From positions 1 to 64,000 of the IMG/VR virus record IMGVR_UViG_3300021407_000013: a stretch of DNA of 64,000 bases. The stretch is one strand, 5' to 3'. Numbering within the stretch: the first letter of the stretch is position 1; each line of letters begins with the position of its first letter. This document shows positions 25,621 through 45,448 of the stretch, one piece after another. Under the pieces are notes generated by a model. The model was not told the origin of the DNA, did not search any database, and saw nothing but the letters and a program-made list of their open reading frames with translations. The translations under genes and the position numbers were made by a program. This stretch comes from a virus.

Positions 25621-25749
25621 AATGTACGATCATAACGACGAAGATGAAGATTTTCACGAATATCCTCCATTCACGCATCCTTGGCGTGAATTCTTTACTT
25701 TCATGTGTTTCCTAATAGCAATAATCTGGGTGCTATGGAAGGCTATATC

Positions 25750-25959: not shown

Positions 25960-25962
25960 CAA

Positions 25963-26481: not shown

Positions 26482-26654
26482 TCACAGGCGTTAGTCATGA
26501 TAAAGGAAATGTCATTATTAACTTCGGTAAACCAGTAGCATGGGTAGCATTTCCTCCAGAAATGGCATTTCAATTCGCTCGATCAATTGCCACACACGCC
26601 CATGCTGCTATGACTGATATTACGGAGACTACTGATGGGAACGAAAAAGGATGA
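26400..26654 (+). CDS. Hypothetical protein
   Basis: SD AAGGAG; GKLNNEDEG...VIINFGKPVAWV. Confidence 0.6.
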   Translation: MANDLGPIGPTNDYPKGKLNNEDEGGLITGVSHDKGNVIINFGKPVAWVAFPPEMAFQFARSIATHAHAAMTDITETTDGNEKG

Positions 26655-26883
26655 GACTGTAATATGCTGTATGAGGGCCTCGCCAAAAGGCCCAAATACT
26701 GACAGCATCTTATCCAGTTGCAACAAATGTGGCCATCCTATCTGGATCGCCAAAAGCACTCCAATCATTGAAGGTGCGCGCTTTCTGTGTATGCAATGCG
26801 TTCCATGGAACGAAGTGACAGATGTAGCACCGCCGACGATGGATCAAATGTCTGACGTTCTGAGATCCAAAAATAGCAGGTAA
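26635..26883 (+). CDS. Zn-finger hypothetical protein
   Basis: CxxC...CxxC. Confidence 0.55.
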   Translation: MGTKKDETVICCMRASPKGPNTDSILSSCNKCGHPIWIAKSTPIIEGARFLCMQCVPWNEVTDVAPPTMDQMSDVLRSKNSR

Positions 26884-26887
26884 CGAA

Positions 26888-27361
26888 ATGAAACTCTTAG
26901 AGGTAGCAAGCGAAGGTGACTTACGTTACTGGATCCAAGAATGGATATTTGAATGTGAAGGGAGGCTTTCGTTAGAGTGGGTTGAACCTATGATGTATGG
27001 GAGCACTGTTGGCGCTCCAGATTGCAAAATCAAATTTGCCAATCATACCATAGGATTAGAACTCAAATATCTATTGAGTACGAAGAAGGGCATAAAATGG
27101 ACAGTGCGTCCAGCTCAAAGGCGCTACCATCATATGAACGTAAGAAATGGTGGTCGAAGTGCGTTATTAGCATGGATAGCAGCCAAAGAAGAACTTGTGC
27201 TAGTACGTGGCGATCATATACCACTACGAGACTACGCCTCAGATAAGGAGTCTGGTTGCGCCCACGGATTAGTCAAATTGGACTCATTTGGTATGTCAGA
27301 TAAACAAGCCATATTTAGTTTAGAAAAATTGATCTTCAACGACGAGTATTGGGAGAGATAG
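26888..27361 (+). CDS. PD-(D/E)xK nuclease, Holliday-junction-resolvase/VRR-NUC-like
   Basis: GAPD...LELK...RPAQ...GG motif. Confidence 0.7.
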   Translation: MKLLEVASEGDLRYWIQEWIFECEGRLSLEWVEPMMYGSTVGAPDCKIKFANHTIGLELKYLLSTKKGIKWTVRPAQRRYHHMNVRNGGRSALLAWIAAKEELVLVRGDHIPLRDYASDKESGCAHGLVKLDSFGMSDKQAIFSLEKLIFNDEYWER

Positions 27362-27409
27362 ATGGTTAAGATGATTCCGCCACAATACAAAAGAGGAGGA
27401 TCACACGCC

Positions 27410-27607
27410 ATGCCACCAAATGACAAGATCGCTCATCATACTCTGCACCAGAAGGTCCAGAAGCTCGATGGCTACAAATATCCAGGCATTATTGTGGCTA
27501 TATTCACTACCACAGAAGGTCGAGTCCGTTACGTGGTGGAAGCTGACCATCCCGATTTTCGTGGTATGCTTCATATATTCTCTGATTCTCAACTTGAGGA
27601 AAGGTAA
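27410..27607 (+). CDS. Hypothetical protein
   Basis: SD GGAGGA; start re-assigned. Confidence 0.55.
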   Translation: MPPNDKIAHHTLHQKVQKLDGYKYPGIIVAIFTTTEGRVRYVVEADHPDFRGMLHIFSDSQLEER

Positions 27608-27853
27608 ATGAAGTGCCAAGTTTGCCAAGGCAAAACATATCTTGAAAGATGGGCTTGCCCAGAATGTCTTGGCAGCGGCATAACGTCATGTTGTGAAGGA
27701 AACCCAAATACAAATAAGTGGTTTGAAGCGCCCATCTCAGACCGATTAAAAGAAGCTGAAATATTGATTGTCAGTACAAAATTTGATAAAGATGGTAATT
27801 TAGTAAAAATCAAAACTCTCGTAGATCAAAAACAGGATGATAAAAATGAATGA
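27608..27853 (+). CDS. Small DnaJ-type Zn-finger protein
   Basis: CxxCxG...CPECxGxG. Confidence 0.55.
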   Translation: MKCQVCQGKTYLERWACPECLGSGITSCCEGNPNTNKWFEAPISDRLKEAEILIVSTKFDKDGNLVKIKTLVDQKQDDKNE

Positions 27854-28058
27854 GCCAGAACGCCCGATGTTTGAGTGTGACGCAGAAGTCTATACATGCC
27901 CATATTGTATGAAAGCTGTTGTGGTATATGTAGAATTAGATGGCAGTGGTATCATTTCCAGACCTGAATATGATTTAATTGCTAATTGGGTTTATCATTC
28001 CGCGTGTTGGGATAAACAGATGAGAGAGCATCCGCCAGGAGAACCAAATGTCAAATGA
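27846..28058 (+). CDS. Hypothetical protein
   Basis: CPYC...HxxC; coupled. Confidence 0.5.
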   Translation: MNEPERPMFECDAEVYTCPYCMKAVVVYVELDGSGIISRPEYDLIANWVYHSACWDKQMREHPPGEPNVK

Positions 28059-28368
28059 TAAAGCAGAGCTCAGAGCGTTTCTCAAAGAGCGCGATGATTT
28101 ATTCAAAAATCCAACACTAGAAGCAGCGCAATCTTGGTGGCTCAAGGCTGGTCATCCGCAATGGGCAAGAGAAGATGTACCACTAGCCGCGGTCCACAAG
28201 GCACGATTACAGTGGTTAGAATCCACAGATGCTATGATAGAAGAATCTATCAAATGGCTACAAGAGCATGATTATTCAATCGAATGGCAAGGAGCGCCAC
28301 CACTCACGCCAGAACGCCGCGATGCTGATAGAGTGTCTTTGGGCAAGAAACCGCTAGGTCAAACATGA
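28048..28368 (+). CDS. Hypothetical protein
   Basis: SD AGGAG. Confidence 0.55.
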   Translation: MSNDKAELRAFLKERDDLFKNPTLEAAQSWWLKAGHPQWAREDVPLAAVHKARLQWLESTDAMIEESIKWLQEHDYSIEWQGAPPLTPERRDADRVSLGKKPLGQT

Positions 28369-28541
28369 AGAGACTCATCATAGCTCTATTCACAGTGTGG
28401 TTTTTATTTGTCGCAGCAATGGTCTACTCAGTTTTGGCTTATGGACCATCAGACCATTCTAATAGTGCTATGGACTATGATGAGTCACAATTCCTATTCT
28501 GGCACGTAATCATGCCAGTTCTGCACTCAAATATGAACTAG
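28365..28541 (+). CDS. 58-aa membrane protein (not in ORF track)
   Basis: ATGA overlap; MKRLIIALFTVWFLFVAAMVYSVLAY. Confidence 0.5.
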   Translation: MKRLIIALFTVWFLFVAAMVYSVLAYGPSDHSNSAMDYDESQFLFWHVIMPVLHSNMN

Positions 28542-28550
28542 GAGGTCGCT

Positions 28551-28973
28551 ATGGGAGAAGCCAAACGTAAATATCTTCTTGTCAAAGTTGTATCCAAAAA
28601 ACCTGAATTCCAAACGACAAGGCTCAGCACAGGCTGCAATTGTCTGAACTGTGGCATCTTGATTGACGCCGCCACCAGCGTTAACCATAAGCATACACCA
28701 TACCCAGGTGCCATAGCCATCTGTATGATCTGCTCTCATATAATGGCATATGACGAGAGAATTCATCTGCGAGAGCTCAATGATGAAGAAATATTGTTAA
28801 TAGCTGGTGACAAAGATATACTCTTCTTGATCAACGGCCTTGGTGGCGCCAAGAAAGAGTGGGAATCAAAACATGGCGAAGGATCGTGGGGTAAAACCAG
28901 CAGGGACCGGCTCGCACAAGCGCAAGCCAGAGTTGAAGCTAAACAGGAAGCGGCCAGGACTAAGGGAGAATGA
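28551..28973 (+). CDS. Zn-binding hypothetical protein
   Basis: SD GGAGG; CxxC pairs. Confidence 0.55.
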   Translation: MGEAKRKYLLVKVVSKKPEFQTTRLSTGCNCLNCGILIDAATSVNHKHTPYPGAIAICMICSHIMAYDERIHLRELNDEEILLIAGDKDILFLINGLGGAKKEWESKHGEGSWGKTSRDRLAQAQARVEAKQEAARTKGE

Positions 28974-29172
28974 ATATGAATGCGCCGCCTGCCATAAGGT
29001 CTTCACCAAAGGAGTGTCGGATGAAGAAGCTCTGGCGGAAGCTGCGGTATTATTTCCTACTGTACCAATTGAAGAAACCAGTCTAGTCTGCGAGGACTGT
29101 TTTCAGGAAATGATGGCAGACATCAAAGCCAGGCCATGGGCCTACCCACCTTTACCAGATGAGGATAAATAA
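28840..29172 (+). CDS. Zn-binding hypothetical protein (start uncertain)
   Basis: CAAC...CEDC. Confidence 0.5.
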   Translation: MVAPRKSGNQNMAKDRGVKPAGTGSHKRKPELKLNRKRPGLRENEYECAACHKVFTKGVSDEEALAEAAVLFPTVPIEETSLVCEDCFQEMMADIKARPWAYPPLPDEDK

Positions 29173-29810
29173 TGGCATATGACCTGTTTGATAAGGATGG
29201 CAAGCGCAAACGGCGTGAGGGCTCTGGGGTAGCGCCCAGACCACTCGATGAAGTAGAGCGTGAAATCGTCAGAGCCGACATGGCTGAGTTAATCGCCAGA
29301 GAAAAAGAAAATGGTGATTGGGCTAAGTGGGAGGAATCGCAGCGCCCAATTTCGCAACTGCGATCCCTTGACCGCGATATAGTACATATCACTGTTACAC
29401 TGACAATTGACGGCCACATCATCCCAAACCCACCAGACACAGAAGATGTAGTCAGACGTGAGATGGAATCACGCTTCCTCCGCTATGAGCGCCAAGAAAT
29501 GCCCAGTCGCATTATGGCCCTCGAACATGACAGGAGGTTACATCGACCTGCACCAGAGGTTGGTGATAGAGGAATATTCAATGGTTATATCGCACCAAGT
29601 TCTCCACGTTTCTATACGGGTCAGATTACTCCTGAGATCTGGGAACTCTTTGTAGGGCGCGCTCCAGTCAATGATGACATAGAGCGCGCCAACTGCTACC
29701 AAGAAGGTATGCTTGGCCATCAAAGCTGCGGTTGGTGCCACGACTGCATGAAGCCACGCTATGCTTGCGGCCATCTATGTTTCCCAAGTAGTTCCACACC
29801 AAGTAGGTGA
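29172..29810 (+). CDS. Hypothetical protein with Cys-rich C-terminus
   Basis: Coupled ORF; RANC...GH..CGWC..C. Confidence 0.55.
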   Translation: MAYDLFDKDGKRKRREGSGVAPRPLDEVEREIVRADMAELIAREKENGDWAKWEESQRPISQLRSLDRDIVHITVTLTIDGHIIPNPPDTEDVVRREMESRFLRYERQEMPSRIMALEHDRRLHRPAPEVGDRGIFNGYIAPSSPRFYTGQITPEIWELFVGRAPVNDDIERANCYQEGMLGHQSCGWCHDCMKPRYACGHLCFPSSSTPSR

Positions 29811-34677: not shown

Positions 34678-35314
34678 TCCAATACATGACATAGATCCAG
34701 AACCTACTGTCATGTGGGAAGAGGACTATGAACGCCTCAAGAAACGACAGAAAATGGACGCTGCAATTGAGCGCTCCAATAAGGAGAAAGCTGACGCTAT
34801 TGCTCGTGAATTATATAAAGAGCAATTGAAGATCAAAGATAAGATTGAATATACAGAAGAGTTGGCGACAGAGATTTGTGAGAGGATCAGTGCTGGTGAG
34901 CTATTGATCAACATATGTCGTGATTCACATATGCCAACCGTGCGCCGCTGTTCAGCATGGCTCAAATCTGAAGCTGATTTCCAAGCACTCTATAATATGG
35001 CTATTGCAGATAGATTGACTATATTTGAAGAGGAAGTGATCTCAATTGCTGATGATGCAGCACGTGATATGAAAGAAATACAGAAATCTGGGAAAACGAT
35101 TAGAGTTCAAGATGCTGAGGTCATTGCGCGAGCGAAGCTCAGAGTTGAGGTGCGCTTCAGGCATTTGAAAGCTGGGCGACCTGGTAAATGGGGTGATAGC
35201 ACCACTCTCATCACTAAATCAGAAGATGAAAATATTGCTGAGATGCCATTGTCTGAGCTGGAAAAGAAGATTGCTGAACTTGAACACAAGGATCGGGTGG
35301 TCAAGGCAGTGTGA
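34670..35314 (+). CDS. Terminase small subunit-like protein
   Basis: YTEELATEICERISAGE.L..IC...HMP....W...F...Y HTH pattern and RAKLRV..R of Sf6/P22-like TerS. Confidence 0.7.
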   Translation: MTNPIHDIDPEPTVMWEEDYERLKKRQKMDAAIERSNKEKADAIARELYKEQLKIKDKIEYTEELATEICERISAGELLINICRDSHMPTVRRCSAWLKSEADFQALYNMAIADRLTIFEEEVISIADDAARDMKEIQKSGKTIRVQDAEVIARAKLRVEVRFRHLKAGRPGKWGDSTTLITKSEDENIAEMPLSELEKKIAELEHKDRVVKAV

Positions 35315-35340
35315 TGGGGGCGCCACAAGCGCCCCCTGTT
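35315..35340. terminator. Hairpin between convergent genes
   Basis: GGGGGCGC-CACAA-GCGCCCCC. Confidence 0.55.
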
Positions 35341-35341
35341 A

Positions 35342-35581
35342 TTATAGTGATTTTGCCTTTTCAACAAAATCTGATAGTAATTTTTTGCCAGATATATCTT
35401 CTTTGATATAATTCTCCTTTAGCTCTTGGAGAATATCAGATGCCCATTTGAGATGTCTCTCTGCATTATTCAATGCAGCTACATCTAATGGTTCTGATTT
35501 TGAAAATCTAAGAGCATTTCTCAGATTTTCCCTTAGTTCAGTAGTATAATATTGAGTATCACGCACTGTTTTGGTTGCCAT
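35342..35581 (-). CDS. Hypothetical protein
   Basis: SD GGAG. Confidence 0.55.
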   Translation of the reverse strand: MATKTVRDTQYYTTELRENLRNALRFSKSEPLDVAALNNAERHLKWASDILQELKENYIKEDISGKKLLSDFVEKAKSL

Positions 35582-35635
35582 ATTATTCTCCGTTCATTTG
35601 GCAAAATTGCCTATCAAATGAATTGAGTATCATGG

Positions 35636-35656
35636 TGTTACACTTGTACACTTTTT
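35636..35656. repeat. 21-bp inverted repeat, left copy
   Basis: TGTTACACTTGTACACTTTTT. Confidence 0.85.
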
Positions 35657-35668
35657 CGGTCGATTTTC

Positions 35669-36670
35669 TTATGCATATCTCTCCCACATCTCAGCAAAGT
35701 CTTCTTTAAAATACCATCTTGCTAATTTTCCTTCGTGTCTTTGAACTCTATTCTCGATCTCAAAATCTCTGAGTATTCGAGCAAGTTTGCCTGTTGACAA
35801 TTTATAGTCTGACCAATTTACATCGCTAAAATCTGAATTTATCAAAAACTCTACTAATTGATTATTGGTAATTGCGTCTTTCTTGCTATTGGTGAATATC
35901 TCTTGAACATCAGATAGCAACGACTCTCTGACATCTGGAATAACTCTTTCTTTATAGAAATCAGCCATTGCCTCATATGCAGTCTTCGCACGATCTACGG
36001 CATGGCCTATCGCAATGAGTGGGCGCCACTTGTCTGCGTAGCGCCCTATAATTTGTGGAGGCATTAATGGATTTGGATTGAGATTTACACCTTCTGCCCA
36101 TCGCGCAACCTCTGCGTGATAAAAAGCCTCTCTTGGATTAAATATCTCCATTTGTTTATTTGAGCGATGCATTTTAACCATTATGGATCTACTCATAAGC
36201 GATACTGGTAAATGGCCTATACTTGCAAGAGCGAGTGGGCCATATACAGGAGTTAATATGACTTCTTTACCTATTTTCCTGGGTACACTTCCTCCAATTT
36301 CGTGTCCTGCATTTAGAATGGCTTTCATACTTCTTACTATGGACATATTATCTACTTCATCAATTAGCAATGTATGACTATTAGCTAGAGCAAATGCAGT
36401 AGCTGGAGTTGGATCTATTACTTTCTCTGGGCGCCACACAATTGAGTTTAAAATATTGAGTACAGAACTTTTACCGCAGTTTGGTAATGGGCTGAAAATT
36501 AGCAGTCTAGGTGATTTATCATATCTTCTATGTATGTGGGTATGTAGCGCCCAGAGACCTAGACCTACAATATGATGTGGTTTTGCGTCTATACATCTGG
36601 CAAAAGCACCGCATACTTGGTCAAGAATGTTAGTATCAGCGTGCAATTTGGTTGATGATAACGTGGGCAT
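35669..36670 (-). CDS. DUF3631-like P-loop replication protein
   Basis: PRL.I.SP.PNCGKS, TLLIDEVD, ILNAGH, R.AD.WRPLIAI, LARILRDF.I. Confidence 0.75.
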   Translation of the reverse strand: MPTLSSTKLHADTNILDQVCGAFARCIDAKPHHIVGLGLWALHTHIHRRYDKSPRLLIFSPLPNCGKSSVLNILNSIVWRPEKVIDPTPATAFALANSHTLLIDEVDNMSIVRSMKAILNAGHEIGGSVPRKIGKEVILTPVYGPLALASIGHLPVSLMSRSIMVKMHRSNKQMEIFNPREAFYHAEVARWAEGVNLNPNPLMPPQIIGRYADKWRPLIAIGHAVDRAKTAYEAMADFYKERVIPDVRESLLSDVQEIFTNSKKDAITNNQLVEFLINSDFSDVNWSDYKLSTGKLARILRDFEIENRVQRHEGKLARWYFKEDFAEMWERYA

Positions 36671-36688
36671 TAGCCTTCTCCTTGTCGA

Positions 36689-36709
36689 AAAAAGTGTACA
36701 AGTGTAACA
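36689..36709. repeat. 21-bp inverted repeat, right copy
   Basis: AAAAAGTGTACAAGTGTAACA. Confidence 0.85.
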
Positions 36710-36725
36710 TTCATCTTTCTTCTCC

Positions 36726-36959
36726 TCAATTCATTCGTTTCTGCATGTATAATGAAGCTTCTTCCTTGGTTAAATCTTGCGCTACTATTCCAACCAAAGG
36801 TTTATTTTCTTCAGCTATATCTTTTGCAAGAACTTCAATTGCTTTTTCTCCCATATGCATATTGAAATGCAAGCCTTCTTCAATTTCTCCTTCTCTCATA
36901 CCTGTAAATACAGGTGTACCATTATATCGTAGTACCTCGTAAATAAACCATTTGGACAT
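36726..36959 (-). CDS. Hypothetical protein downstream of hammerhead HH6
   Basis: SD AGGAGA. Confidence 0.6.
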   Translation of the reverse strand: MSKWFIYEVLRYNGTPVFTGMREGEIEEGLHFNMHMGEKAIEVLAKDIAEENKPLVGIVAQDLTKEEASLYMQKRMN

Positions 36960-36974
36960 TTTTCTCTCCTAGTT

Positions 36975-37045
36975 GATCTCGTCAGGTAGTGTATTACACT
37001 ACTATTATCAGCTCATAATTATAGCGTAAGCTGATAATTTCGATC
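36975..37045 (-). ncRNA. Type II hammerhead ribozyme HH6 (AUA; predicted cut between 37003 and 37002)
   Basis: GAUC-GAAA-UUAUCAGCU..AGCUGAUAA-UA/GUAGUG-UAAUA-CACUAC-CUGACGA-GAUC. Confidence 0.9.
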
Positions 37046-37049
37046 TCAG

Positions 37050-37155
37050 GAAACGACGCAACCATTTTGGTAGTTACTTAACCGCATGGCATTCTTCTAA
37101 TACCAGGTTTGTGTCGCTTTTCGTCGAAATGACTGCGCCCGAGTTTTCTCTCGGG
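37050..37155 (-). ncRNA. Conserved structured leader RNA, copy A (unknown class)
   Basis: Homologous to 37805..37957 with covarying stems. Confidence 0.7.
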
Positions 37156-37176
37156 TGAAATTCCTGCTTACAACCT

Positions 37177-37205
37177 ATAGTAGCACATTTTCGTTGCCAA
37201 AGCAA
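37177..37205 (-). promoter_or_regulatory. Phage early promoter (leftward)
   Basis: TTGCTT-N13-GTGC-TACTAT. Confidence 0.7.
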
Positions 37206-37279
37206 GTCTTTTTTATTATTGAATGAGATGATACGTTGAAACCCTTGCAGCACTGGGTGGCGCTGCAAGGGGATTATGG

Positions 37280-37573
37280 TTAGTTGGTCATACCCGGCTG
37301 TTCGCGCCGTTCCATATTGTAGTATGCCTTGAGAGAGCTATATGGAGACCTGTTAAGTTCCTTGATCAAATAACGATCCGAGGCGTCTTGACTTTCTAGC
37401 ATCATGCGCTCGCCTCTGGCAGATTGCTCTTCTCTGATAAGCTCGATCTTTCTATGAAAACGTGATGCAATGCGCTCCCGAGCTTGAGCAATCTCGTCTA
37501 TTCTATAGTTGATGTCGTTGACTTTATCGTAATTTTCTGTCTTGACCATATCTAACTCCTTCTGTATGGGCAC
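37280..37573 (-). CDS. Hypothetical protein
   Basis: Downstream of promoter 37589..37617; probable start at internal ATG with SD AGGAG. Confidence 0.55.
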   Translation of the reverse strand: MPIQKELDMVKTENYDKVNDINYRIDEIAQARERIASRFHRKIELIREEQSARGERMMLESQDASDRYLIKELNRSPYSSLKAYYNMERREQPGMTN

Positions 37574-37588
37574 TCGCCCTTACCTGCT

Positions 37589-37617
37589 ACCCTAGCACTT
37601 TTTCCGAAAGAAAGCAA
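37589..37617 (-). promoter_or_regulatory. Phage promoter (leftward)
   Basis: TTGCTT-N13-GTGC-TAGGGT. Confidence 0.65.
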
Positions 37618-37768
37618 GCATTTTCTTTTTATCAAAATCACCATTCCTCATTCATTGGCTGAATAATGGCTGATGAAATCATTTCATTCAACATTTGAAG
37701 CTTCATGGGTCAGTGATAATCATGGTATTTTCCCCTTTTGTTCCCTTAAAGTTCTGCTTTTGTTCCCC

Positions 37769-37797
37769 TTGCTTTCTTTTCCGGGACGTGCTACGGT
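37769..37797 (+). promoter_or_regulatory. Phage early promoter (rightward)
   Basis: TTGCTT-N13-GTGC-TACGGT. Confidence 0.7.
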
Positions 37798-37804
37798 TTT
37801 CTTT

Positions 37805-37957
37805 CCGCGGAGGAAACCGCGGCGCAGCCTGAGACTTGGCGAAAAGCGAAACAAACCCGGCAAGATGACTCGCCGAGCGGTTAAGTAAGTGGTTAGGCAG
37901 TCTCTCCCCAAAGGGCAATAAGCACCAGGGAGAAAAACCGGCCATTTGCGTCGTTTC
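37805..37957 (+). ncRNA. Conserved structured leader RNA, copy B (unknown class)
   Basis: Shares CGCAG, CGAAAAGCGA.ACAAACC, GCGGTTAAGTAA, TTGCGTCGTTTC with copy A. Confidence 0.7.
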
Positions 37958-38052
37958 GGCGGACGGAAATATCCGCCTGAGATAACAACACAGAGCACAG
38001 CGCCCTGAGAAGGGTGCTGTGTTCGCTGGAGTTATTTCTAGCAAGGAAAAGT

Positions 38053-38436
38053 ATGATGTCTAGTAAAAAACGCGCATTGATAAGGCATATGAAGGCAAAT
38101 CCGTTAGATAGTGTGAGATCTGCACATAAAAATATGGACATTACTCCGAAGCGGATGACATATCGAATTGATCCGAATAAAGAATTGAAGGAACGGGACG
38201 AAAAACCGCTTGAAGAAGTAAAGATTAATCAGAATTACGATATTTGGAGAGTAGACGTAAAAATATTAAAAAGATCTGGTAAGAAAGTTATAAAATATGT
38301 GAAGAATAATCCGCCTGGAAAGCGGTATTATCCTCTATCTGAGTCTAAAATAGCGAAAGGTGATCAGATAGAAGGCAAAACGGTGACAGGAACTACGTTT
38401 GCTGATTACAACAACAAGCGTAAAAGTGAGGAGTAA
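38053..38436 (+). CDS. Basic hypothetical protein
   Basis: SD AAGGA; start re-assigned. Confidence 0.55.
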   Translation: MMSSKKRALIRHMKANPLDSVRSAHKNMDITPKRMTYRIDPNKELKERDEKPLEEVKINQNYDIWRVDVKILKRSGKKVIKYVKNNPPGKRYYPLSESKIAKGDQIEGKTVTGTTFADYNNKRKSEE

Positions 38437-38441
38437 GGGTT

Positions 38442-38621
38442 ATGTCAGAGCGTAAATTGAAAGATAGGAGCATTTTCAGGAAACAGCCAAAAATGCCGCC
38501 ACTACAGCGATTGTTTGTCAGCGCAGCAACTGGACATGCCAATCGCAGCAAAAAACTAAAAGTCTCAGTTGCACCTATGCAATTCACCAAACAGGAGAAG
38601 AAAAATGACGAAGATGTTTAA
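38442..38621 (+). CDS. 59-aa basic protein (not in ORF track)
   Basis: MSERKLKDRSIFRKQPKMPPLQRLF..., fills the gap between genes. Confidence 0.45.
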   Translation: MSERKLKDRSIFRKQPKMPPLQRLFVSAATGHANRSKKLKVSVAPMQFTKQEKKNDEDV

Positions 38622-38937
38622 CCAGGAAGTACATGACAACCTCATTGCTCTCGGATACACGTATCTATTCAGATACAAGAATAGATACGATGAGTATAAC
38701 CATCCTATTAACGACGACTGGATTAGCATAGACAAAGTTGGGCGTGTAGATTTCCCAGATATATGCTCCTATATTGATACTCCAAAGCATAAAGCTAAAA
38801 TCCAGAGGGATATGACACCTGCTATGGCATTAAGAATAGCAGTTAATATGAAGAAAATATTTGAACAAAAGAATTTGCCATACCAATTAGATATAGATGG
38901 TCATAAAATAAAATTAGGAATAATGACTCAACATTAG
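38605..38937 (+). CDS. Hypothetical protein (N-terminus resembles 47887..48096)
   Basis: SD AGGAG; stop TAG overlaps HH1. Confidence 0.6.
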   Translation: MTKMFNQEVHDNLIALGYTYLFRYKNRYDEYNHPINDDWISIDKVGRVDFPDICSYIDTPKHKAKIQRDMTPAMALRIAVNMKKIFEQKNLPYQLDIDGHKIKLGIMTQH

Positions 38938-39000
38938 ACCGAAACTGGTGCGCCATATAGGGCGTTCCAGTCCTAGCGTGAGGCGCTAGCTGACGAGGTC
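38937..39000 (+). ncRNA. Type II hammerhead ribozyme HH1 (GUC; cut after 38972)
   Basis: GACC-GAAA-CUGG..CCAG-UC/CUAGCG-UGAGG-CGCUAG-CUGACGA-GGUC. Confidence 0.95.
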
Positions 39001-39019
39001 AGTAACAGGAGAAAGTACA

Positions 39020-39241
39020 ATGGCACGGGTAATTGTTCAGGTTAAGCTTGCAGACATCAATGGAAACGAATACACGGAAGGTGAGTTGCTTCGTGAATTT
39101 ACAGTAGTAACCAAAGGTCGCGGTGCAATAAATATACAGTCGATGGCATCAATTATACAAGGTACAATCGAAGCTTATGAGGACAAATTTAGGGTTGAAA
39201 ATACCAAAACATATTCAGTAACAAATCGCCGAACTGGTTAA
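39020..39241 (+). CDS. Hypothetical protein between HH1 and HH2
   Basis: SD AGGAGA. Confidence 0.65.
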   Translation: MARVIVQVKLADINGNEYTEGELLREFTVVTKGRGAINIQSMASIIQGTIEAYEDKFRVENTKTYSVTNRRTG

Positions 39242-39244
39242 CCA

Positions 39245-39303
39245 GGCCGAAACTGGCAGGTGCGATCTGCCAGTCCTAGCGTAAATCGCTAGCTGACGAG
39301 GTC
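39245..39303 (+). ncRNA. Type II hammerhead ribozyme HH2 (GUC; cut after 39275)
   Basis: GGCC-GAAA-CUGGCAG..CUGCCAG-UC/CUAGCG-UAAAU-CGCUAG-CUGACGA-GGUC. Confidence 0.95.
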
Positions 39304-39322
39304 AGTAACCAGGAGAACTAAA

Positions 39323-39610
39323 ATGGCACAGATAGAAGATGAGCAATTACTCGCGATGTATTCGCGGGATTTTACCACTGATAAGTCCTATGGACAGCTC
39401 AGTGTTGTCTCCATACTCACAGAGAGTGTGGAGCAACTAACAGATCTCATACCAGAGATCGCTACGCTCCCAGTTGAGCGTAAGGCACAGATTGAAGAGC
39501 AGATTGTGCTCTTCACTCTTTCGCTCTACCACGAAGGTAGATTGCGCGGTGAAGCTGCGGAGCGTTCCACACAAGAGGCTGATTCTGATCGCCTCTCAAA
39601 TTACGAGTGA
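39323..39610 (+). CDS. Hypothetical protein
   Basis: SD AGGAGA right after HH2. Confidence 0.6.
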   Translation: MAQIEDEQLLAMYSRDFTTDKSYGQLSVVSILTESVEQLTDLIPEIATLPVERKAQIEEQIVLFTLSLYHEGRLRGEAAERSTQEADSDRLSNYE

Positions 39611-39618
39611 GGTAGCAA

Positions 39619-39858
39619 ATGACAACCATTACAATCGAACTAGAGATAGTTCAGGCCCAAGAACTTGCCGCAGTAGCACGTGGCAAAGCTAAGGGCATCG
39701 ACTGGGTTCTGGAGAATAAACCTCCAATTCCCAAGAAGGCGTTAGAGCTTGATGAGCGAGCTAAGGTGCTCATACAAGCAGCCACTACCATTGAGACAGC
39801 GCTCCATGCAAGGGCGCTCTCCAATGTCGTTCCGTTGGGAGGTAAAAATGCCGGCTGA
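39619..39858 (+). CDS. Hypothetical protein
   Basis: SD GAGG. Confidence 0.55.
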   Translation: MTTITIELEIVQAQELAAVARGKAKGIDWVLENKPPIPKKALELDERAKVLIQAATTIETALHARALSNVVPLGGKNAG

Positions 39859-40144
39859 TCCCTGGATCGTATGCCCAGTCTGCGATGGCGAAGGCAAGAC
39901 TGTCAATCCGAACATTGATTCGAACGGATTGACCAGAGAAGACTTCGATGAAGACCCAGACTTCAGAGAAGATTATATGAGCGGCGTATATGATATTACG
40001 TGCGCTGCTTGCTCTGGGAAGCGTGTTGTGAAAGCAGCACGTATCGAGGAGCTTCAACAAAATGCTGAAGATCGACGCCTCGCCGCTCGTGAGAACGGTG
40101 ATTATGAATCATACTGCGGTGCAGGCGACTGGAGGTATGGGTAA
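39848..40144 (+). CDS. Zn-finger hypothetical protein
   Basis: CPVCDGEG...GVYD..CxxCxG; SD GGAGG. Confidence 0.6.
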   Translation: MPADPWIVCPVCDGEGKTVNPNIDSNGLTREDFDEDPDFREDYMSGVYDITCAACSGKRVVKAARIEELQQNAEDRRLAARENGDYESYCGAGDWRYG

Positions 40145-40383
40145 TGGACAAGCAAATAGAAAATCGCGCCAAGTACCCATACATCTGCGCTTGGGGTATG
40201 CGACTTGGTTCTTTTCAATATTATATCGACGGAGAAATTAAAAGAGCCATCGAGGACGGCGCTCCTGAGCGTGCCATTTACAAGAGCGGTTCAGGAGAGT
40301 GGCGCACCATTGATGATTGTGCGAACCCCAATGCTAAAGAAGAATGTGAGGCGTGGGTAGCTAAAAAATACCCTGGCAAATAG
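40144..40383 (+). CDS. Hypothetical protein
   Basis: Coupled; stop TAG overlaps HH3. Confidence 0.6.
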   Translation: MDKQIENRAKYPYICAWGMRLGSFQYYIDGEIKRAIEDGAPERAIYKSGSGEWRTIDDCANPNAKEECEAWVAKKYPGK

Positions 40384-40439
40384 ATCGAAACTGGCAGTGC
40401 GATTGCCAGTCGCGTTGTAATGCAACGCCTGACGAGGTC
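40383..40439 (+). ncRNA. Type II hammerhead ribozyme HH3 (GUC; cut after 40411)
   Basis: GAUC-GAAA-CUGGCAG..UUGCCAG-UC/GCGUUG-UAAUG-CAACGC-CUGACGA-GGUC. Confidence 0.95.
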
Positions 40440-40464
40440 AGTTACCCAAACCAGGACTACGAAA

Positions 40465-40677
40465 ATGGCTATCCAAAATACAACATTATATGAGGATAAC
40501 TATGGCTTCTACTGTGTAGAGGAGCCAGATGAAGAAGCCTTCTACGTCCACATCGTAAAGCAGAGTGTGGCGAAGAAGTGCTCGCGTTGCCAAAAGAAGG
40601 TGCGCTTGTTGAAGCATATCAAAATGTGCGCTTCGTGTTCTAATGCCATCGAGTTTGGCGCATCGGAGTCAATATAA
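40465..40677 (+). CDS. Zn-finger hypothetical protein
   Basis: SD AGGA after HH3; CSRC...CASC. Confidence 0.6.
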   Translation: MAIQNTTLYEDNYGFYCVEEPDEEAFYVHIVKQSVAKKCSRCQKKVRLLKHIKMCASCSNAIEFGASESI

Positions 40678-40961
40678 TGTCAAACGAAATTTTAGAAGCT
40701 GTGCCAGACACAGAAGCCAAGCCGCGTATGGTTAAGATACAGGTGTGGTGTTGGAAGACCTATACCAAAAAATACAAAGATGAAGTTGTTAGCTTCATGT
40801 CAGAAGAATACAGCGCTGATGCTTACAAGTCGGAAGGTGACATTATAAATCATCATCTTACAAACGGCCACTACCAATTGCATCGTATTGATTGCTTCTA
40901 CACTTTAATACATGAAGGTGGTTCTACTGATATACTGCAATGGAGGTTCGAGCAGTCATGA
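40677..40961 (+). CDS. Hypothetical protein
   Basis: Coupled ORF. Confidence 0.55.
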   Translation: MSNEILEAVPDTEAKPRMVKIQVWCWKTYTKKYKDEVVSFMSEEYSADAYKSEGDIINHHLTNGHYQLHRIDCFYTLIHEGGSTDILQWRFEQS

Positions 40962-41260
40962 AAGAAGGTAATCACATCATTACCATTGAAGAGCTATTTT
41001 TATTATCTGTCATGCTTCGACAGTTCCAAGAAAAAGTAGAAGCAATTGACAAAGACAAAACAATTTCATCTTTCGTTGCCTTGTTTCCATTGGAGCAAGA
41101 CAAGTCAGAAGATCCACATGAAATTGCTAAAGTTTCTCTCCAGAATTTATTGGAGGGATTCGAGAAAACCGAGCGTCAAATTCGCGATACAAACTACCAG
41201 TTGTTCAAAGTTAGAACATTTCTGGAAGCCCTAAAGGATGGCGCCTCAGATTGGAAATAG
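40958..41260 (+). CDS. Hypothetical protein
   Basis: ATGA coupling; stop TAG overlaps HH4. Confidence 0.55.
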   Translation: MKEGNHIITIEELFLLSVMLRQFQEKVEAIDKDKTISSFVALFPLEQDKSEDPHEIAKVSLQNLLEGFEKTERQIRDTNYQLFKVRTFLEALKDGASDWK

Positions 41261-41326
41261 ATCGAAACTATGGGGCGCACCAAAAGCGTTCCATAGTCGC
41301 GGCGTTACTCGCCGCCTGACGAGATC
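41260..41326 (+). ncRNA. Type II hammerhead ribozyme HH4 (GUC; cut after 41298)
   Basis: GAUC-GAAA-CUAUGGGGCGC..GCGUUCCAUAG-UC/GCGGCG-UUACU-CGCCGC-CUGACGA-GAUC. Confidence 0.95.
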
Positions 41327-41345
41327 AGAAAAAGGAGTAGGTAGC

Positions 41346-41555
41346 ATGACGAAAGTAGATCCAAAATCTGCCTTTGAAGGGGACACCATTACTCCCATCG
41401 AAAAGCCCAAAACAAGGCAACAGAAAATTGTTGAGTATAGAGCAGCTCACGAAGCTGAGTATCGTAAGGCGTGCCACGAAGAGCAATGCACCTGCACACC
41501 AACGCGGGCGCAAATGCTCATTATGGAGAATTACAACCATCCACCGATCGACTAA
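41346..41555 (+). CDS. Hypothetical protein
   Basis: SD AAGGAG after HH4; start re-assigned. Confidence 0.6.
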   Translation: MTKVDPKSAFEGDTITPIEKPKTRQQKIVEYRAAHEAEYRKACHEEQCTCTPTRAQMLIMENYNHPPID

Positions 41556-41573
41556 GAAAATTTATTGAACTTA

Positions 41574-41597
41574 GTGGGGCTTCGGCCCCATTCTTTT
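41574..41597 (+). terminator. Intrinsic terminator
   Basis: GTGGGGC-TTCG-GCCCCAT then TCTTTT. Confidence 0.75.
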
Positions 41598-41631
41598 AGG
41601 TCATTTAAGGCCACTAACCAGGAGAGTAAAA

Positions 41632-41928
41632 ATGGAAATCCACGACAATCTTCACTATACTGATTCTACATACGGAAACCCAGAACGTAAATGGCAGATG
41701 CGTTCTGATCACATTCTCAAGCTGTTCGATCTACCACCGAATGGTCCAATTCCTCCTGATCATTTCGATTCTAGGGTTATTGGCAATGTGCAGGTTATGA
41801 TCGTTCCGCGCGGTTATTTCAAAATCAAGCGTCGTGTGGTCGCGTATTGCCCCAAGTGCAAGAAAATTGTGTGCGCTGGTCATTTAATGCAGCACATGAA
41901 GGTCCACAAGAAGGACCAGGAGATTTAA
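41632..41928 (+). CDS. C2H2-type Zn-finger protein
   Basis: CPKC.K......L.QHMKVH. Confidence 0.6.
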   Translation: MEIHDNLHYTDSTYGNPERKWQMRSDHILKLFDLPPNGPIPPDHFDSRVIGNVQVMIVPRGYFKIKRRVVAYCPKCKKIVCAGHLMQHMKVHKKDQEI

Positions 41929-41929
41929 G

Positions 41930-42073
41930 ATGACTCAATTAGATTTTCATTCCGCCTGTATTTTGGTCCTCGGTCTTGGAGGCTTCGCCAATACCGTTGC
42001 CAATTATCTGCTATCAAAACGAGTCCGCTATTTGGAGCATAAACGCAAGGTTATGTTCTGGGAAAGGGAGTAA
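41930..42073 (+). CDS. 47-aa membrane protein (not in ORF track)
   Basis: SD AGGAG; hydrophobic ACILVLGLGGFANTVANYLL. Confidence 0.45.
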   Translation: MTQLDFHSACILVLGLGGFANTVANYLLSKRVRYLEHKRKVMFWERE

Positions 42074-42301
42074 ATGACCGAACAGGAAGAAGCATTTGAT
42101 CTATGGAAATCCAGAGTAGACGTTTATCTGGAGCAGATGGTTAAAAAGCTAAGTGGAGATTTTCGTTACGATTTTTTGAAAGACTTCAACGATAAGGTTC
42201 CACCTAGCGTAACAGCAACCAGAGTTGTTAAAAGTCAATACAAAGGAGCTAGAAATGGCAGAGTACGAAGTCAAATCAAACGGGAAGAAGCTCCTCGATG
42301 A
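42074..42301 (+). CDS. Hypothetical protein
   Basis: Coupled ORF. Confidence 0.5.
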   Translation: MTEQEEAFDLWKSRVDVYLEQMVKKLSGDFRYDFLKDFNDKVPPSVTATRVVKSQYKGARNGRVRSQIKREEAPR

Positions 42302-42485
42302 GTATCGAGGAGACCGCGTTTTTGGAGATTGTTATGTCATTCTTAAGGATGGAAAGGAATCGTATGAAGTCGTCCTTTCTACCATAGTTGACAGTTGCAA
42401 TTGCCCAGGATTTACACATCACGGGCATTGTAAGCATATTGATATGACTTACGAGAAAGCATTTGTTTCTGAAGTAGATCAATAG
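42255..42485 (+). CDS. SWIM Zn-finger protein
   Basis: CNCPGF...CKHI; stop TAG overlaps HH5. Confidence 0.65.
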   Translation: MAEYEVKSNGKKLLDEYRGDRVFGDCYVILKDGKESYEVVLSTIVDSCNCPGFTHHGHCKHIDMTYEKAFVSEVDQ

Positions 42486-42549
42486 ACCGAAACTTGGTGC
42501 GCCACAAAGGCGTTCCAAGTCGTGCTGTTAGGCAGCACCTGACGAGGTC
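42485..42549 (+). ncRNA. Type II hammerhead ribozyme HH5 (GUC; cut after 42521)
   Basis: GACC-GAAA-CUUGG..CCAAG-UC/GUGCUG-UUAGG-CAGCAC-CUGACGA-GGUC. Confidence 0.95.
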
Positions 42550-42573
42550 AGAAATGCCAAGGAGGTAGCACGT

Positions 42574-42720
42574 ATGGGTGACCCAGAAGAGCATAAAGAC
42601 GAAGAGTTGAGCGTAAAGGCTGATACTCCTGCTCCAAAGGAGGAAGGTCCGTCTGAACCAAAAGAACCAGAAGCGGATCCAATCCGTAAAGGTGAAGGCG
42701 ATCAGCCTGAAGTAGCGTAA
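42574..42720 (+). CDS. 48-aa acidic disordered protein (not in ORF track)
   Basis: SD AAGGAGG after HH5; MGDPEEHKDEELSVKADTPAPKEEGP... Confidence 0.6.
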   Translation: MGDPEEHKDEELSVKADTPAPKEEGPSEPKEPEADPIRKGEGDQPEVA

Positions 42721-42725
42721 GCATA

Positions 42726-42762
42726 GGCCGCTCCCATTTGGGAGGATGGGAGCGGTTTCTTT
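42726..42762 (+). terminator. Intrinsic terminator
   Basis: GGCCGCTCCCAT..ATGGGAGCGGTT then TCTTT. Confidence 0.7.
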
Positions 42763-42777
42763 AACCAGGAGAACAAA

Positions 42778-42966
42778 ATGCCTAAAAGTGAAGCGTTAAA
42801 ATATATATCAGTACCTCGTAACGAATATCAAATTCTTACAAGCGCCATGCGTATCTATGTGGCTCTTCTCACAGAGGAATACGGCAATCAGCCTTCTTCT
42901 GAGAGGAAAACCGCTATGGAAGATGCGATCTCTTTATTGACAAGGATGAAAAATGGCAAACTTTAA
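42778..42966 (+). CDS. Hypothetical protein
   Basis: SD AGGAGA. Confidence 0.55.
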   Translation: MPKSEALKYISVPRNEYQILTSAMRIYVALLTEEYGNQPSSERKTAMEDAISLLTRMKNGKL

Positions 42967-43153
42967 AGACCATCCTCCGTTAAAGCCGTGCCATTGCGGC
43001 TCTGGTCTGGAGCGCCACGCAGAAAAAGATGCTCGTGGTATCTTTCTTTGCTATGTCTGTGAGAAATGCAGAGATGAGAAGCTCTCTCATTATCGACCAG
43101 ACGTTCTTACTGACCCAAACTATTGGCACGACGAGCCAATCGACGAGCCATAA
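42953..43153 (+). CDS. Zn-binding hypothetical protein
   Basis: CHCGSG...DARGI...VC.KC. Confidence 0.6.
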   Translation: MANFKDHPPLKPCHCGSGLERHAEKDARGIFLCYVCEKCRDEKLSHYRPDVLTDPNYWHDEPIDEP

Positions 43154-43154
43154 A

Positions 43155-43298
43155 ATGCAAACAATCCTCTTGTTTCTCATTCTTATGGCACTTTCGCCTA
43201 GATTGGCGCGAGCGTTCGGCAAGTTCATCGTCATGCTTGTGTTGTTTTTCATCGGCATACTGGTTTTAGCAGCATGGCCGCATGTAGGGCATCCGTAA
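43155..43298 (+). CDS. 47-aa two-helix membrane protein
   Basis: Start re-assigned; hydrophobic. Confidence 0.5.
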   Translation: MQTILLFLILMALSPRLARAFGKFIVMLVLFFIGILVLAAWPHVGHP

Positions 43299-43357
43299 TG
43301 CATGGCTTCATTGTCTTTTTGCTCGTGATCATTATTCTAATGCTCATGTGCAAATGA
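43298..43357 (+). CDS. 19-aa hydrophobic peptide
   Basis: TAATG coupling; MHGFIVFLLVIIILMLMCK. Confidence 0.45.
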   Translation: MHGFIVFLLVIIILMLMCK

Positions 43358-43362
43358 GTTAA

Positions 43363-43531
43363 GGCGCGGTAACAGCGCCAGCCGCCAAAGACTAGCCATC
43401 CACAGCCCCCCGTTCGGATGGCATTTTTATCAATTTAGCGAACCCTCTGGTCATTTAGAATCGCCCCCCGGTTCCTATGGGCCAGAGGTAGACTTGCCGC
43501 TCCACTCCCCACAAGAGTGGAGCGGCCCTTT
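43363..43531 (+). ncRNA. Candidate sRNA of tandem hairpins with C-rich loops ending in a terminator
   Basis: GCCATCC/GGATGGC, CCTCTGGTC/GGCCAGAGG, GCCGCTCCACTC/GAGTGGAGCGGC stems. Confidence 0.5.
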
Positions 43532-43567
43532 TAGGCAATTTAGCCACAAACTAGGATTTAAAATGTC

Positions 43568-44581
43568 ATGTACCTTATGGATCACATCGTAGAAACAGTT
43601 CATCAAGCGAAGAAACGAAAGTTGATGCAACATCCTGTTGTCAGAATCTTTCCAGAATTGGAAGAGAAACTGAAAGGATGCCCGCGTTTCTTGTTTGACG
43701 AGAACGCAATCAGAACGGCTGTGGAACTTACTCTGGGGCGCCCCAAGGTGCTTAGGGAAGCCATGGCACATCTTACCATTCCATACACTAAGTTGTGGGT
43801 AGAATGGCCAGAAAGCGGCAGAGAAAAATTGAGACAGACGTTCTCAATCGACTCTTACGAGTATCCTGAGCGCCCATTACCAACTCGTTTGGGCTTTCTG
43901 CTAGAGACAGATGAGTCTGGTAGAAAAGGTCAGGTTACTTGGGTTTGGAGTAATCATTTTATCAAGAAAGGTGAGCCTCCGAATGTTGGTCCAATATCTG
44001 CGTTCTTTGATTTGGATTTTAACTATAGCAAGTTGGTAAGCCCGAGCTTTGTGAAAAGTTTTTTGGATGCTAACCTAGCGCATATCTGGAAGGACAACAA
44101 AATCCAACTGGAGGCGCTCCTTAGTATTTGGGATACATCTTATCATCAACCGTCCGAATGGGGACAGAAGTTTCTGAAAATTCCTGTTCCAGGATCGCCG
44201 TATGGTAACGATGATCAACGTGTAGCCAATTTCTATGCGGACGTTTATGGCGAATACATTATGGTTTGGTCTTGCTTGTTACTGTTGACATCTTCCAAGA
44301 AGATTGTAAATTTGGAAGAAGTTGATATGTCTCCGCTCAATAAAATACGCAGGCGGATGGATAAGCCTCAAAAACTAGATCATACCATTGTTAGCATGTA
44401 TATAAATGAAGAAACTCGTATGCACCAACAAGGTATGCCTCTTGGGTATACCAGAAAGAGTCCACGTATCCATATGGTTGGGTCATATCTTAACAGACGT
44501 GGCGATAAACATTGGATAGTTCAGCCTTTCTGGCGAGGCGAAGGCGAAGTTATCAGCAGACACGTAAAAGTGAAAGGATAG
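43568..44581 (+). CDS. Phage protein of unknown function
   Basis: 337 aa; PY..LWVEW and C-terminal SPR.H.V..Y..RRG...W...FWRG. Confidence 0.7.
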   Translation: MYLMDHIVETVHQAKKRKLMQHPVVRIFPELEEKLKGCPRFLFDENAIRTAVELTLGRPKVLREAMAHLTIPYTKLWVEWPESGREKLRQTFSIDSYEYPERPLPTRLGFLLETDESGRKGQVTWVWSNHFIKKGEPPNVGPISAFFDLDFNYSKLVSPSFVKSFLDANLAHIWKDNKIQLEALLSIWDTSYHQPSEWGQKFLKIPVPGSPYGNDDQRVANFYADVYGEYIMVWSCLLLLTSSKKIVNLEEVDMSPLNKIRRRMDKPQKLDHTIVSMYINEETRMHQQGMPLGYTRKSPRIHMVGSYLNRRGDKHWIVQPFWRGEGEVISRHVKVKG

Positions 44582-44584
44582 CAC

Positions 44585-44800
44585 ATGCCATCACATTACT
44601 ATTCACTTCTCGGAATAGTAAGAGCTACTCCAATAAAGCACGGATGGAACGTCGAAGTATCCTACAAGGATGAAGATGTCCATTCCGGTCCTTACAAGAC
44701 TACCACTAAATGGCATCCTGTAAAGGAAGTCACTACTGTTGACGAGTTAAATGATCTTGTTCTAAAACTATGCAGTGAGGAGACTAAACGTGAAACGTAG
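44585..44800 (+). CDS. Hypothetical protein
   Basis: ORF with SD. Confidence 0.5.
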   Translation: MPSHYYSLLGIVRATPIKHGWNVEVSYKDEDVHSGPYKTTTKWHPVKEVTTVDELNDLVLKLCSEETKRET

Positions 44801-45164
44801 CCTAATCATAATGGCGCTGCTCATATCAGGTAGCGCCCAAGCAGAGATGTGTGACTTTGAGCACAAATGTTACCCAGATCAGCCTTATTACGATCTGCAA
44901 GGAAAAAGAATTCCACCACCAGCACCGCAATATCCACAGCCTAAGCCATTACCAACACCATCTGCACAAGTTACCATTAATTCAAACATTTGCAAGTTGG
45001 CGAAGATCAGAGTTTCCCCTGAGGCGCCACAAACGATAATTGAAATCTGTACCATGTCAGATGACGAAGAAAGAATGTATCGTCAGCGGCAGAGAGATCA
45101 TCAAATCTCAATTCCACAGATGTATATGAAGAACTATCTCGTACCACCGGAAGGGAACTACTAA
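44790..45164 (+). CDS. Secreted Pro-rich protein
   Basis: Signal peptide ending AQA-E; SD GAGGAG. Confidence 0.55.
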   Translation: MKRSLIIMALLISGSAQAEMCDFEHKCYPDQPYYDLQGKRIPPPAPQYPQPKPLPTPSAQVTINSNICKLAKIRVSPEAPQTIIEICTMSDDEERMYRQRQRDHQISIPQMYMKNYLVPPEGNY

Positions 45165-45448
45165 TGGGTAAGTTTGAACCGTCTATTGATGAAACGGAAA
45201 GGCTTACGTTCTTTCCAGACGGAACCGCTATGGTTATACGTTACTCAGTGTTAACTGGCAAATTCAACAAATGTACGTTGAATCTTACCCAACAGCAATA
45301 CGACGATTGGAAAATTAGGCGTCGTCTAATCCAAGATGTCATGCCTCATTTGGATAAAGATGAACGCGAGTTTCTTATGACAGGCTATACGCCAGAAGAT
45401 TGGGCTAAAATGTTCCCTCCAGAGAAAGGGGATGAAGATGCCATCTGA
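45164..45448 (+). CDS. Hypothetical protein
   Basis: LIQDVMPHL..DEREFLMTG.TPE.W motif. Confidence 0.6.
   Translation: MGKFEPSIDETERLTFFPDGTAMVIRYSVLTGKFNKCTLNLTQQQYDDWKIRRRLIQDVMPHLDKDEREFLMTGYTPEDWAKMFPPEKGDEDAI

Follow-up and report, generated by a model that had tools for sequence, protein, structure and literature searches.

Candidate type II hammerhead ribozymes at gene borders in the early region of a tailed phage

Clusters of hammerhead ribozymes have been described in phages and prophages, where same-strand copies, type II hammerheads included, flank single genes or short variable blocks and are proposed to divide long phage transcripts into mRNAs of gene length (Perreault et al. 2011, PMC3088659; review PMC6765202). 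Spliced or circular products were considered in that work as well, and the role of the many phage-genome hammerheads is still unsettled (PMC6765202). Here we characterize a related array in a 64,000-nucleotide stretch of DNA (hereafter called the window), which represents the first 64 kb of the 75,145-bp IMG/VR virus record IMGVR_UViG_3300021407_000013 (completeness estimate 94%). The source virus is an uncultivated tailed double-stranded DNA phage (~75 kb). Our analyses suggest, with a probability of roughly 70%, that five active type II hammerheads on the + strand (HH1 to HH5) punctuate the early transcript of this phage. Unlike the type II hammerheads of Perreault et al., those of the clade to which the window belongs have a long stem III, show no loop I/3'-tail pseudoknot and are invisible to the Rfam model RF02276.

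Two other described systems share features with the locus. The PeSL cassettes of T4-type phages (Arbiol et al. 2010, PMC2839356; Comeau et al. 2014, PMC4122927) similarly consist of orphan genes flanked by short repeats in a variable region, and their close relatives differ by repeat-bounded units, as do the window and its relative L120 in two of three differences. However, a PeSL is a promoter plus a terminator stem-loop that acts on transcription, whereas the repeat of the window would be a self-cleaving ribozyme that acts on RNA; no promoter-like site was found within the window ribozymes. Retrozymes and viroid-like circles (de la Pena et al. 2020, PMC7761336; PMC7229834) likewise have tandem hammerheads and unit-length RNAs with 5'-OH and 2',3'-cyclic phosphate ends, and the two ends of a unit jointly carry a full ribozyme. 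They use type III or type I hammerheads and units that are non-coding and rod-like, with long helices holding the ends, and they rely on tRNA ligase or RtcB and on a reverse transcriptase in trans, whereas the window phage encodes no such ligase or reverse transcriptase. Its units would be translated mRNAs, with a joining helix of 4 bp whose compatibility is not maintained. By analogy, the phage ribozymes would be a natural counterpart of a synthetic part, the RiboJ insulator, reportedly devised by Lou et al. in 2012 as an engineered single hammerhead placed just upstream of the ribosome-binding site, which is said to remove the upstream context and to leave a 5' hairpin.

Hammerhead arrays flanking phage genes, their interpretation as mRNA-processing elements and speculation about circles have thus been known since 2011. 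The additions made here are a comparison of stem II pairing within ribozymes and across piece ends, the prediction of a hairpin that forms after cleavage and a clearly resolved example of cassettes being gained and lost. Together with about eight sequenced relatives, the locus forms a compact natural series: in a single homologous early region, the number of ribozymes ranges from 0 to 7, and the same small genes occur with and without ribozymes at their flanks. This series makes the ideas of an insulator or stabiliser, of a cassette joint and of RNA circles directly testable.

Hammerhead motifs and their conservation

Using a strict type II descriptor (4-bp stem II, GAAA, stem III hairpin, U-H, stem I hairpin, CUGANGA), we found six matches in the 75,145-bp genome, five on the + strand and one on the − strand, vs none in 50 shuffles. 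A covariance model (R1) built on 34 clade copies gave the six window ribozymes 52-85 bits, and the next best match in the window scored 12.8 bits. The + strand copies are HH1 (38937..39000, predicted cut after C38972, 85.1 bits), HH2 (39245..39303, after C39275, 67.9 bits), HH3 (40383..40439, after C40411, 70.8 bits), HH4 (41260..41326, after C41298, 76.8 bits, stem II GAUC/GAUC) and HH5 (42485..42549, after C42521, 81.6 bits). The core residues C3 U4 G5 A6 N7 G8 A9, G12 A13 A14, A15.1-U16.1 and H17 are intact in all six copies, and the core columns are invariant both in the 34 copies of the model and in 39 distinct clade copies. The topology is that of type II hammerheads, with loop-capped stems I and III, an open stem II and the G10.1-C11.1 pair. 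The predicted minimum free energy (MFE) structure is the three-way junction for HH1 (z −3.7), HH2, HH4 and HH5, with z-scores of −3 to −5.4. For HH3, in which stem II is GAUC/GGUC with a G.U pair, the MFE structure is an alternative CUGAC/GUCAG hairpin, even before cleavage.

A search of IMG/VR with the core pattern yielded at least 119 viral contigs, and 45 of the 119 fetched loci contain same-strand arrays of 2-8 ribozymes. With the 337-aa protein encoded just 3' of the array (43568-44581), we also fetched twelve syntenic relatives, whose homologous early regions harbour 0 to 7 ribozymes. Among the 39 distinct clade copies, all 507 cells of the 13 modelled pairs are standard pairs. Double-sided changes were found in 102 cells vs 28 in shuffles, and are present in 8 of the 13 pairs; controls in which the pairing was slid gave only 18-44% pairing.

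These comparisons bear on the possibility that the motifs are relics without activity or arose by chance, to which we attach a nearly negligible probability. The argument for it is that Rfam does not detect them: whether the gathering threshold or E <= 10 was applied, scans with inputs of 64 kb, 5.5 kb, 401 nt and 86 nt yielded no hammerhead match, the sole matches being weak chance ones to NmsRb, speF and freshwater-2. Yet neither the six window copies nor the 39 distinct clade copies have lost any core position, the modelled pairs are all retained with many compensating changes, and shuffled sequences yield no match, so that the comparative data already contradict decay or chance.

The motifs are also placed precisely. 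An open reading frame (ORF) with a minimum length of 40 codons terminates at or near stem II in 37 of 38 distinct clade copies, its stop codon either overlapping the stem or being no more than 7 nt away. Downstream, 36 of the 38 have a Shine-Dalgarno-like sequence in the first 30 nt, and start codons lie 15-25 nt past stem II. Judged from these alignments and positions, the motifs are in all likelihood genuine ribozymes set precisely at gene borders. In the window, the upstream stop codon overlaps the first base of stem II (UAG|ACC or UAG|AUC) at 38935-38940, 40381-40386, 41258-41263 and 42483-42488.

In the clade alignment (A1), the stem III sequences of the window fall into two groups, HH1/HH4/HH5 and HH2/HH3, as the preliminary description of the locus had proposed. 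The left half of HH3 is of the L122_7410 type and its right half of the L120_5115 type, a composition suggestive of a chimera between two ribozyme types. At 39263-39269 and 40400-40406, stem III carries the loop GUGCGAU, which is invariant in 14 of 34 tabulated distinct clade copies, and the stem beneath it covaries (CUGGCA, CAGCCA, CGGCCA, CUGGGA, CUGGUA); by this pattern, the loop looks to be under selection. Denser arrays are found in other uncultivated phages: L058 harbours eight type II hammerheads in 3.2 kb (3063-6261), with adjacent copies alternating between stem II types, and the L032 genome (G004) has at least eight RF02276 matches in 4.4 kb (25353-29715).

The sixth motif, HH6 (36975..37045, − strand), was not part of the preliminary description, which covers only the + strand copies. 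It matches the descriptor, scores 52 bits with the covariance model and has a z-score of −5.4 and an AU-rich stem III of 12 bp; its cut site is AUA, the cut being predicted after 37003 of the − strand. It is located upstream of the − strand ORFs 36959..36726 and 36670..35669 and may play an equivalent role for this oppositely oriented operon. Compared with L120, L121 and L122, in which the DUF3631 gene lies on the + strand (66% nucleotide identity) without a ribozyme, the HH6 module (35400-37640) is inverted and has diverged.

Proposed processing of the early transcript

The five + strand cut sites delimit four pieces, and our coordinates match exactly the cut sites and lengths given in the preliminary description. 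Piece 1 (38973..39275, 303 nt), present in L121 and absent from L120/L016, contains one ORF (39020-39241, 73 aa). Piece 2 (39276..40411, 1136 nt) contains four (39323-39610, 39619-39858, 39848-40144 and 40144-40383), with no Pfam family above cut-off, and piece 3 (40412..41298, 887 nt) contains three (40465-40677, 40677-40961 and 40958-41260). Piece 4 (41299..42521, 1223 nt) contains five (41346-41555, 41632-41928, 41930-42073, 42074-42301 and 42255-42485). The internal terminator proposed earlier for piece 4 corresponds to a terminator-like hairpin (41573..41592, + strand) with an 8-bp stem followed by CUUUUAGG, a weak T tract.

The processing of phage polycistronic RNAs by hammerheads was proposed earlier (PMC3088659, PMC6765202), and we favour it for this locus. 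Each ribozyme would fold upon transcription and cut past the stop codon of one block but ahead of the next block's ribosome-binding site, converting the early transcript into separate messages of 303, 1136, 887 and 1223 nt. The 5' end of a message would bear a 5'-OH and the GC-rich stem I hairpin, with a single-stranded Shine-Dalgarno sequence farther downstream and the start codon 19-25 nt past stem II; its 3' end would consist of the stem III hairpin (predicted at −11 to −17 kcal/mol) with a 2',3'-cyclic phosphate. Given how bacterial mRNAs are known to decay, messages with such ends should withstand both RNases that depend on the 5' end and 3' exonucleases. The likely benefit would be message stability and translation independent of the neighbours. 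Cutting would also free each unit from its upstream context and make it movable between genomes without loss of expression. Because each unit would carry its own processing signals, DNA recombination within or beside the ~60-bp repeats could add, remove or swap units without disturbing expression. The sequences directly show the covarying motifs and where exactly they are placed, differences of cassette size among relatives, and the lack of selection for end-to-end compatibility; cleavage in vivo, refolding, stabilisation and insulation are inferred.

Refolding would involve a second hairpin. The core, the 3' half of stem II and the conserved AG tail of HH1 can form a 5-bp alternative hairpin, CUGAC-GAG-GUCAG (38990..39002, + strand), and the same CUGAC/GUCAG element is present in the other + strand copies (39293-39305, 40429-40441, 41316-41328, where it is of 4 bp, and 42539-42551). 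In the clade, 93% of the cells of this CUGAN/NUCAG hairpin can pair, and 10.2 covaries with N7, a free position of the core. Such a hairpin would account for this covariation as well as for the conservation of the AG that follows stem II. Its predicted probability in the released 3' products, with their new 5' ends, is 0.85-0.93. After cleavage, the 4-bp stem II would melt and CUGAN/NUCAG would form a second 5' hairpin beside stem I, making the cut effectively irreversible.

Several points weigh against this proposal. In the nearest-neighbour model with ±150-nt flanks, the probability of stem II is low (4e-4 to 4e-2), and the covariation of N7 with 10.2 could result from the descent of two alleles rather than from selection. 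RF02276 (Hammerhead_II, gathering threshold 37 bits) gave no score for the window ribozymes, including in a whole-genome search, and the L121 genome likewise yielded no match at E <= 10. On other phage arrays (L058, L005, L032 and L014), it scored 26-46 bits, mostly under the 37-bit cut-off. The published loop I/3'-tail pseudoknot of type II hammerheads was not visible in alignment A1, inspected by eye: a single 3' flank, AGUAACCA, coexists with the loops UAAAU, UAAGU, UUUCU, UUCCU, UGUGG and UUGGG. Since these loops vary over a constant flank, loop I and the 3' tail neither complement each other nor covary. The tertiary contact needed for fast cleavage may be another one, involving for instance the conserved A.A and AG beside stem II. 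Going by the alignments, we consider the ribozymes of the clade to be a divergent type II subclass; that the Rfam type II model misses it as a whole implies that annotation pipelines undercount phage ribozymes.

The last point against the proposal is that a stop codon overlapping stem II would cause the terminating ribosome to unfold the ribozyme, and cleavage must therefore outpace translation or be regulated by it. Regulated cleavage in phages was suggested before (PMC3088659). In such a scheme, which we regard as unlikely here, the terminating ribosome would unfold the ribozyme via the stop codon in stem II, cutting would report on upstream translation, and the CUGAN/NUCAG hairpin would be an off-state before cleavage and not a trap after it. 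The position of the stop codon in 37 of 38 copies and the conservation of the alternative hairpin, which is the MFE structure of HH3, are in line with it. However, this tight packing may merely represent the compaction of a phage genome, the native fold is the MFE structure in four of the five + strand copies, and no ligand-binding or sensor element is visible.

Stem II at piece ends and the circular-RNA question

The preliminary description also suggested that the ends of an excised piece could re-form a hammerhead, with the ORFs as a giant loop, and that circular mRNAs could result. The topology is indeed present. Each piece begins with stem I, CUGACGA and the 3' half of a stem II, and ends with the 5' half of a stem II, GAAA, stem III and GUC. 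As had been noted, the end halves are compatible in pieces 1 to 3, with one mismatch in piece 4, which can be read directly from the sequence: the halves are GGCC and GGUC in piece 1 and GAUC and GGUC in pieces 2 and 3, each pairing with one G.U, and GACC and GAUC in piece 4, with a single C x A mismatch. On the circular reading, a doubly cut piece would re-form a hybrid hammerhead across stem II, and the reverse reaction or a host RtcB would then generate circular or spliced mRNAs, a scenario that we deem highly unlikely. In its favour are the topology, the pairing of the halves in three of the four pieces and the chemistry of the ends, as 5'-OH and 2',3'-cyclic phosphate are the ends used by RtcB.

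We compared own and cross-end stem II pairing in 101 non-redundant arrays. Stem II is fully paired within its own ribozyme in 175 of 188 copies, whereas the halves at cassette ends pair fully in 44 of 85 cassettes (52%), vs 50 ± 3% when the order is shuffled inside arrays. In the clade, pairing fails across the ends of 8 of 29 cassettes but in none of 39 ribozymes (Fisher p 6e-4), and every relative has at least one mismatched cassette. Two stem II alleles are found in the clade, GACC/GGUC and GAUC/GAUC. At the variable position, the pair within ribozymes is C-G in 22 cases, U-A in 16 and U-G in one, and is never unpaired, the 16 changes from C-G to U-A being double. Own halves thus covary and end halves match at the shuffled rate, which indicates that selection keeps the cis ribozyme and not a cross-end hybrid. 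By this sequence comparison, the compatibility of piece ends appears to be a by-product of the existence of only two stem II alleles. Of the earlier suggestion, the topology and the presence of both halves stand; the comparison that could reveal selection for compatible ends is negative.

Thermodynamic estimates are less discriminating. The nearest-neighbour probability of the cross-end stem II is 1e-4 to 3e-2, in the same range as that of the native stem II in its ±150-nt context, and because long-range entropy and ribosomes are left out of the model, we take such estimates as neither supporting nor excluding the hybrid. The joining stem II has only 4 bp, and the two A residues that close it, one invariant and the other nearly so, prevent its extension. 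Refolding of the released 5' end is predicted to mask the GGUC half of stem II, and ribosomes on translated pieces would presumably hold the ends apart. In piece 4, the mismatch adds to the internal terminator-like hairpin. No RtcB, RNA_ligase or RVT_1 (reverse transcriptase) was found in the phage genome; an RtcB supplied by the host may exist.

Perreault et al. raised the possibility of spliced or circular products and did not detect them ('data not shown'; PMC3088659). In metagenome contigs, the exact circle-junction patterns of pieces 1 and 2 were not found, and neither was the native HH2, which the second pattern covers as a control, so that their absence carries no information. Circular mRNAs are formally possible; they are unsupported and gain no support here. 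That units are re-ligated in infected cells, by the hammerhead or by host RtcB, into circular translatable mRNAs is, in our estimation, highly unlikely. If true, it would be a bacterial-virus counterpart of retrozyme circles that shields early messages from exonucleases.

Possible cassette exchange and genome setting

At the DNA level, the ~60-bp repeats might serve as recombination joints, crossover or gene conversion in or at the ribozymes deleting, inserting or reassorting cassettes. This hypothesis, which is compatible with mRNA processing as favoured above, has in our view slightly less than an even chance of being correct. Part of the evidence comes from L120 (L016 is the same contig), which is ~97% identical to the window over 35000-45322. 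L120 lacks exactly piece 1 (303 bp), and its single ribozyme at that place combines the stem III of HH1 with the loop I and 3' flank of HH2, which places the crossover in CCAGUC|CUAGCGU, a segment that both share and that spans the cut site. It also has an extra two-gene unit of 1675 bp, which extends from exactly the 5' edge of a ribozyme to the next ribozyme; a distant homologue of this unit is found at the same place in L124 (proteins 29-35% identical). The third difference between the two (40676-40966) has its breaks at ORF borders and not at a ribozyme: the ORF 40677-40961 (94 aa) is unique to the window, and L120 has an unrelated 117-aa ORF there, inside a ribozyme-bounded piece.

Other relatives also provide evidence on both sides. 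The single-gene units HH-F117-HH and HH-F26-HH recur behind differing upstream genes in L121, L122, L127 and L129, and for two pairs of types, all four combinations of stem I and stem III arms were found. This reassortment and the left/right chimera of HH3, inside DNA that is otherwise 97% identical, show that recombination or gene conversion inside the 60-bp ribozymes has taken place repeatedly. By contrast, the same gene families are shuffled without intervening ribozymes in L127-L129. Independent recent events are few, 2-3 among all near-identical locus pairs, the other pairs showing just one more indel that touches a ribozyme. A deletion between direct repeats always has the spacing of the repeats and is therefore uninformative on the mechanism.

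With respect to the proposal in the preliminary description that ribozymes are recombination points, two of the three differences from L120 do correspond to whole ribozyme-to-ribozyme units, and stem modules do reassort. The comparison of breakpoints with the relatives was mixed. In ribozymes, we found 28% of the ends of homology blocks, vs 10% expected if positions were uniform, but 37% of the gene junctions in arrays carry a ribozyme, and junctions with ribozymes are thus not more break-prone than other gene borders. We rejected as proof a gene-order statistic in which adjacencies with ribozymes are broken more often (odds ratio 2.3), as it is pseudo-replicated. The region is mosaic throughout, and the ribozymes are one kind of joint, not a privileged one. 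Among the relatives, cassettes are gained and lost as whole units, and their exchange at the ribozymes is partly supported by these sequence comparisons. The exchange might possibly be PeSL-like, via excised DNA mini-circles; PeSL cassettes, the closest precedent for cassette exchange, yield such mini-circles (PMC2839356).

The array is located among small orphan genes of the early region, between the structural and replication modules. Based on PHROGs assignments of 10 large window proteins, structural genes, including those for terminase, portal and tape-measure proteins, occupy the − strand at 1-24.7 kb, and replication genes, including those for DNA ligase and DNA polymerase, the + strand at 43-64 kb. 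A blastn search of a phage collection returned no match, and searches with the F117 and F26 cassette proteins revealed no context outside this phage clade. Among 19 window ORFs and 8 ORFs of relatives, the only Pfam match above cut-off was DUF3631 (35669-36670), with two sub-threshold zinc-ribbon hints. Several cassette genes (42255-42485, 39848-40144, 40465-40677 and 41632-41928) code for small Cys/His-rich proteins, none of which reaches the Pfam cut-off. A SWIM-like CxC...CxH motif is visible by eye in one of them, and there are two sub-threshold matches, one to DnaJ (CXXCXGXG) and one to a zinc ribbon. The best sigma-70-like promoter match of the region (35385-35412, + strand) consists of TTGCCA, a 16-nt spacer and TATAAT with an extended TG, and is directly preceded by a GC-rich terminator-like hairpin (35316-35336).

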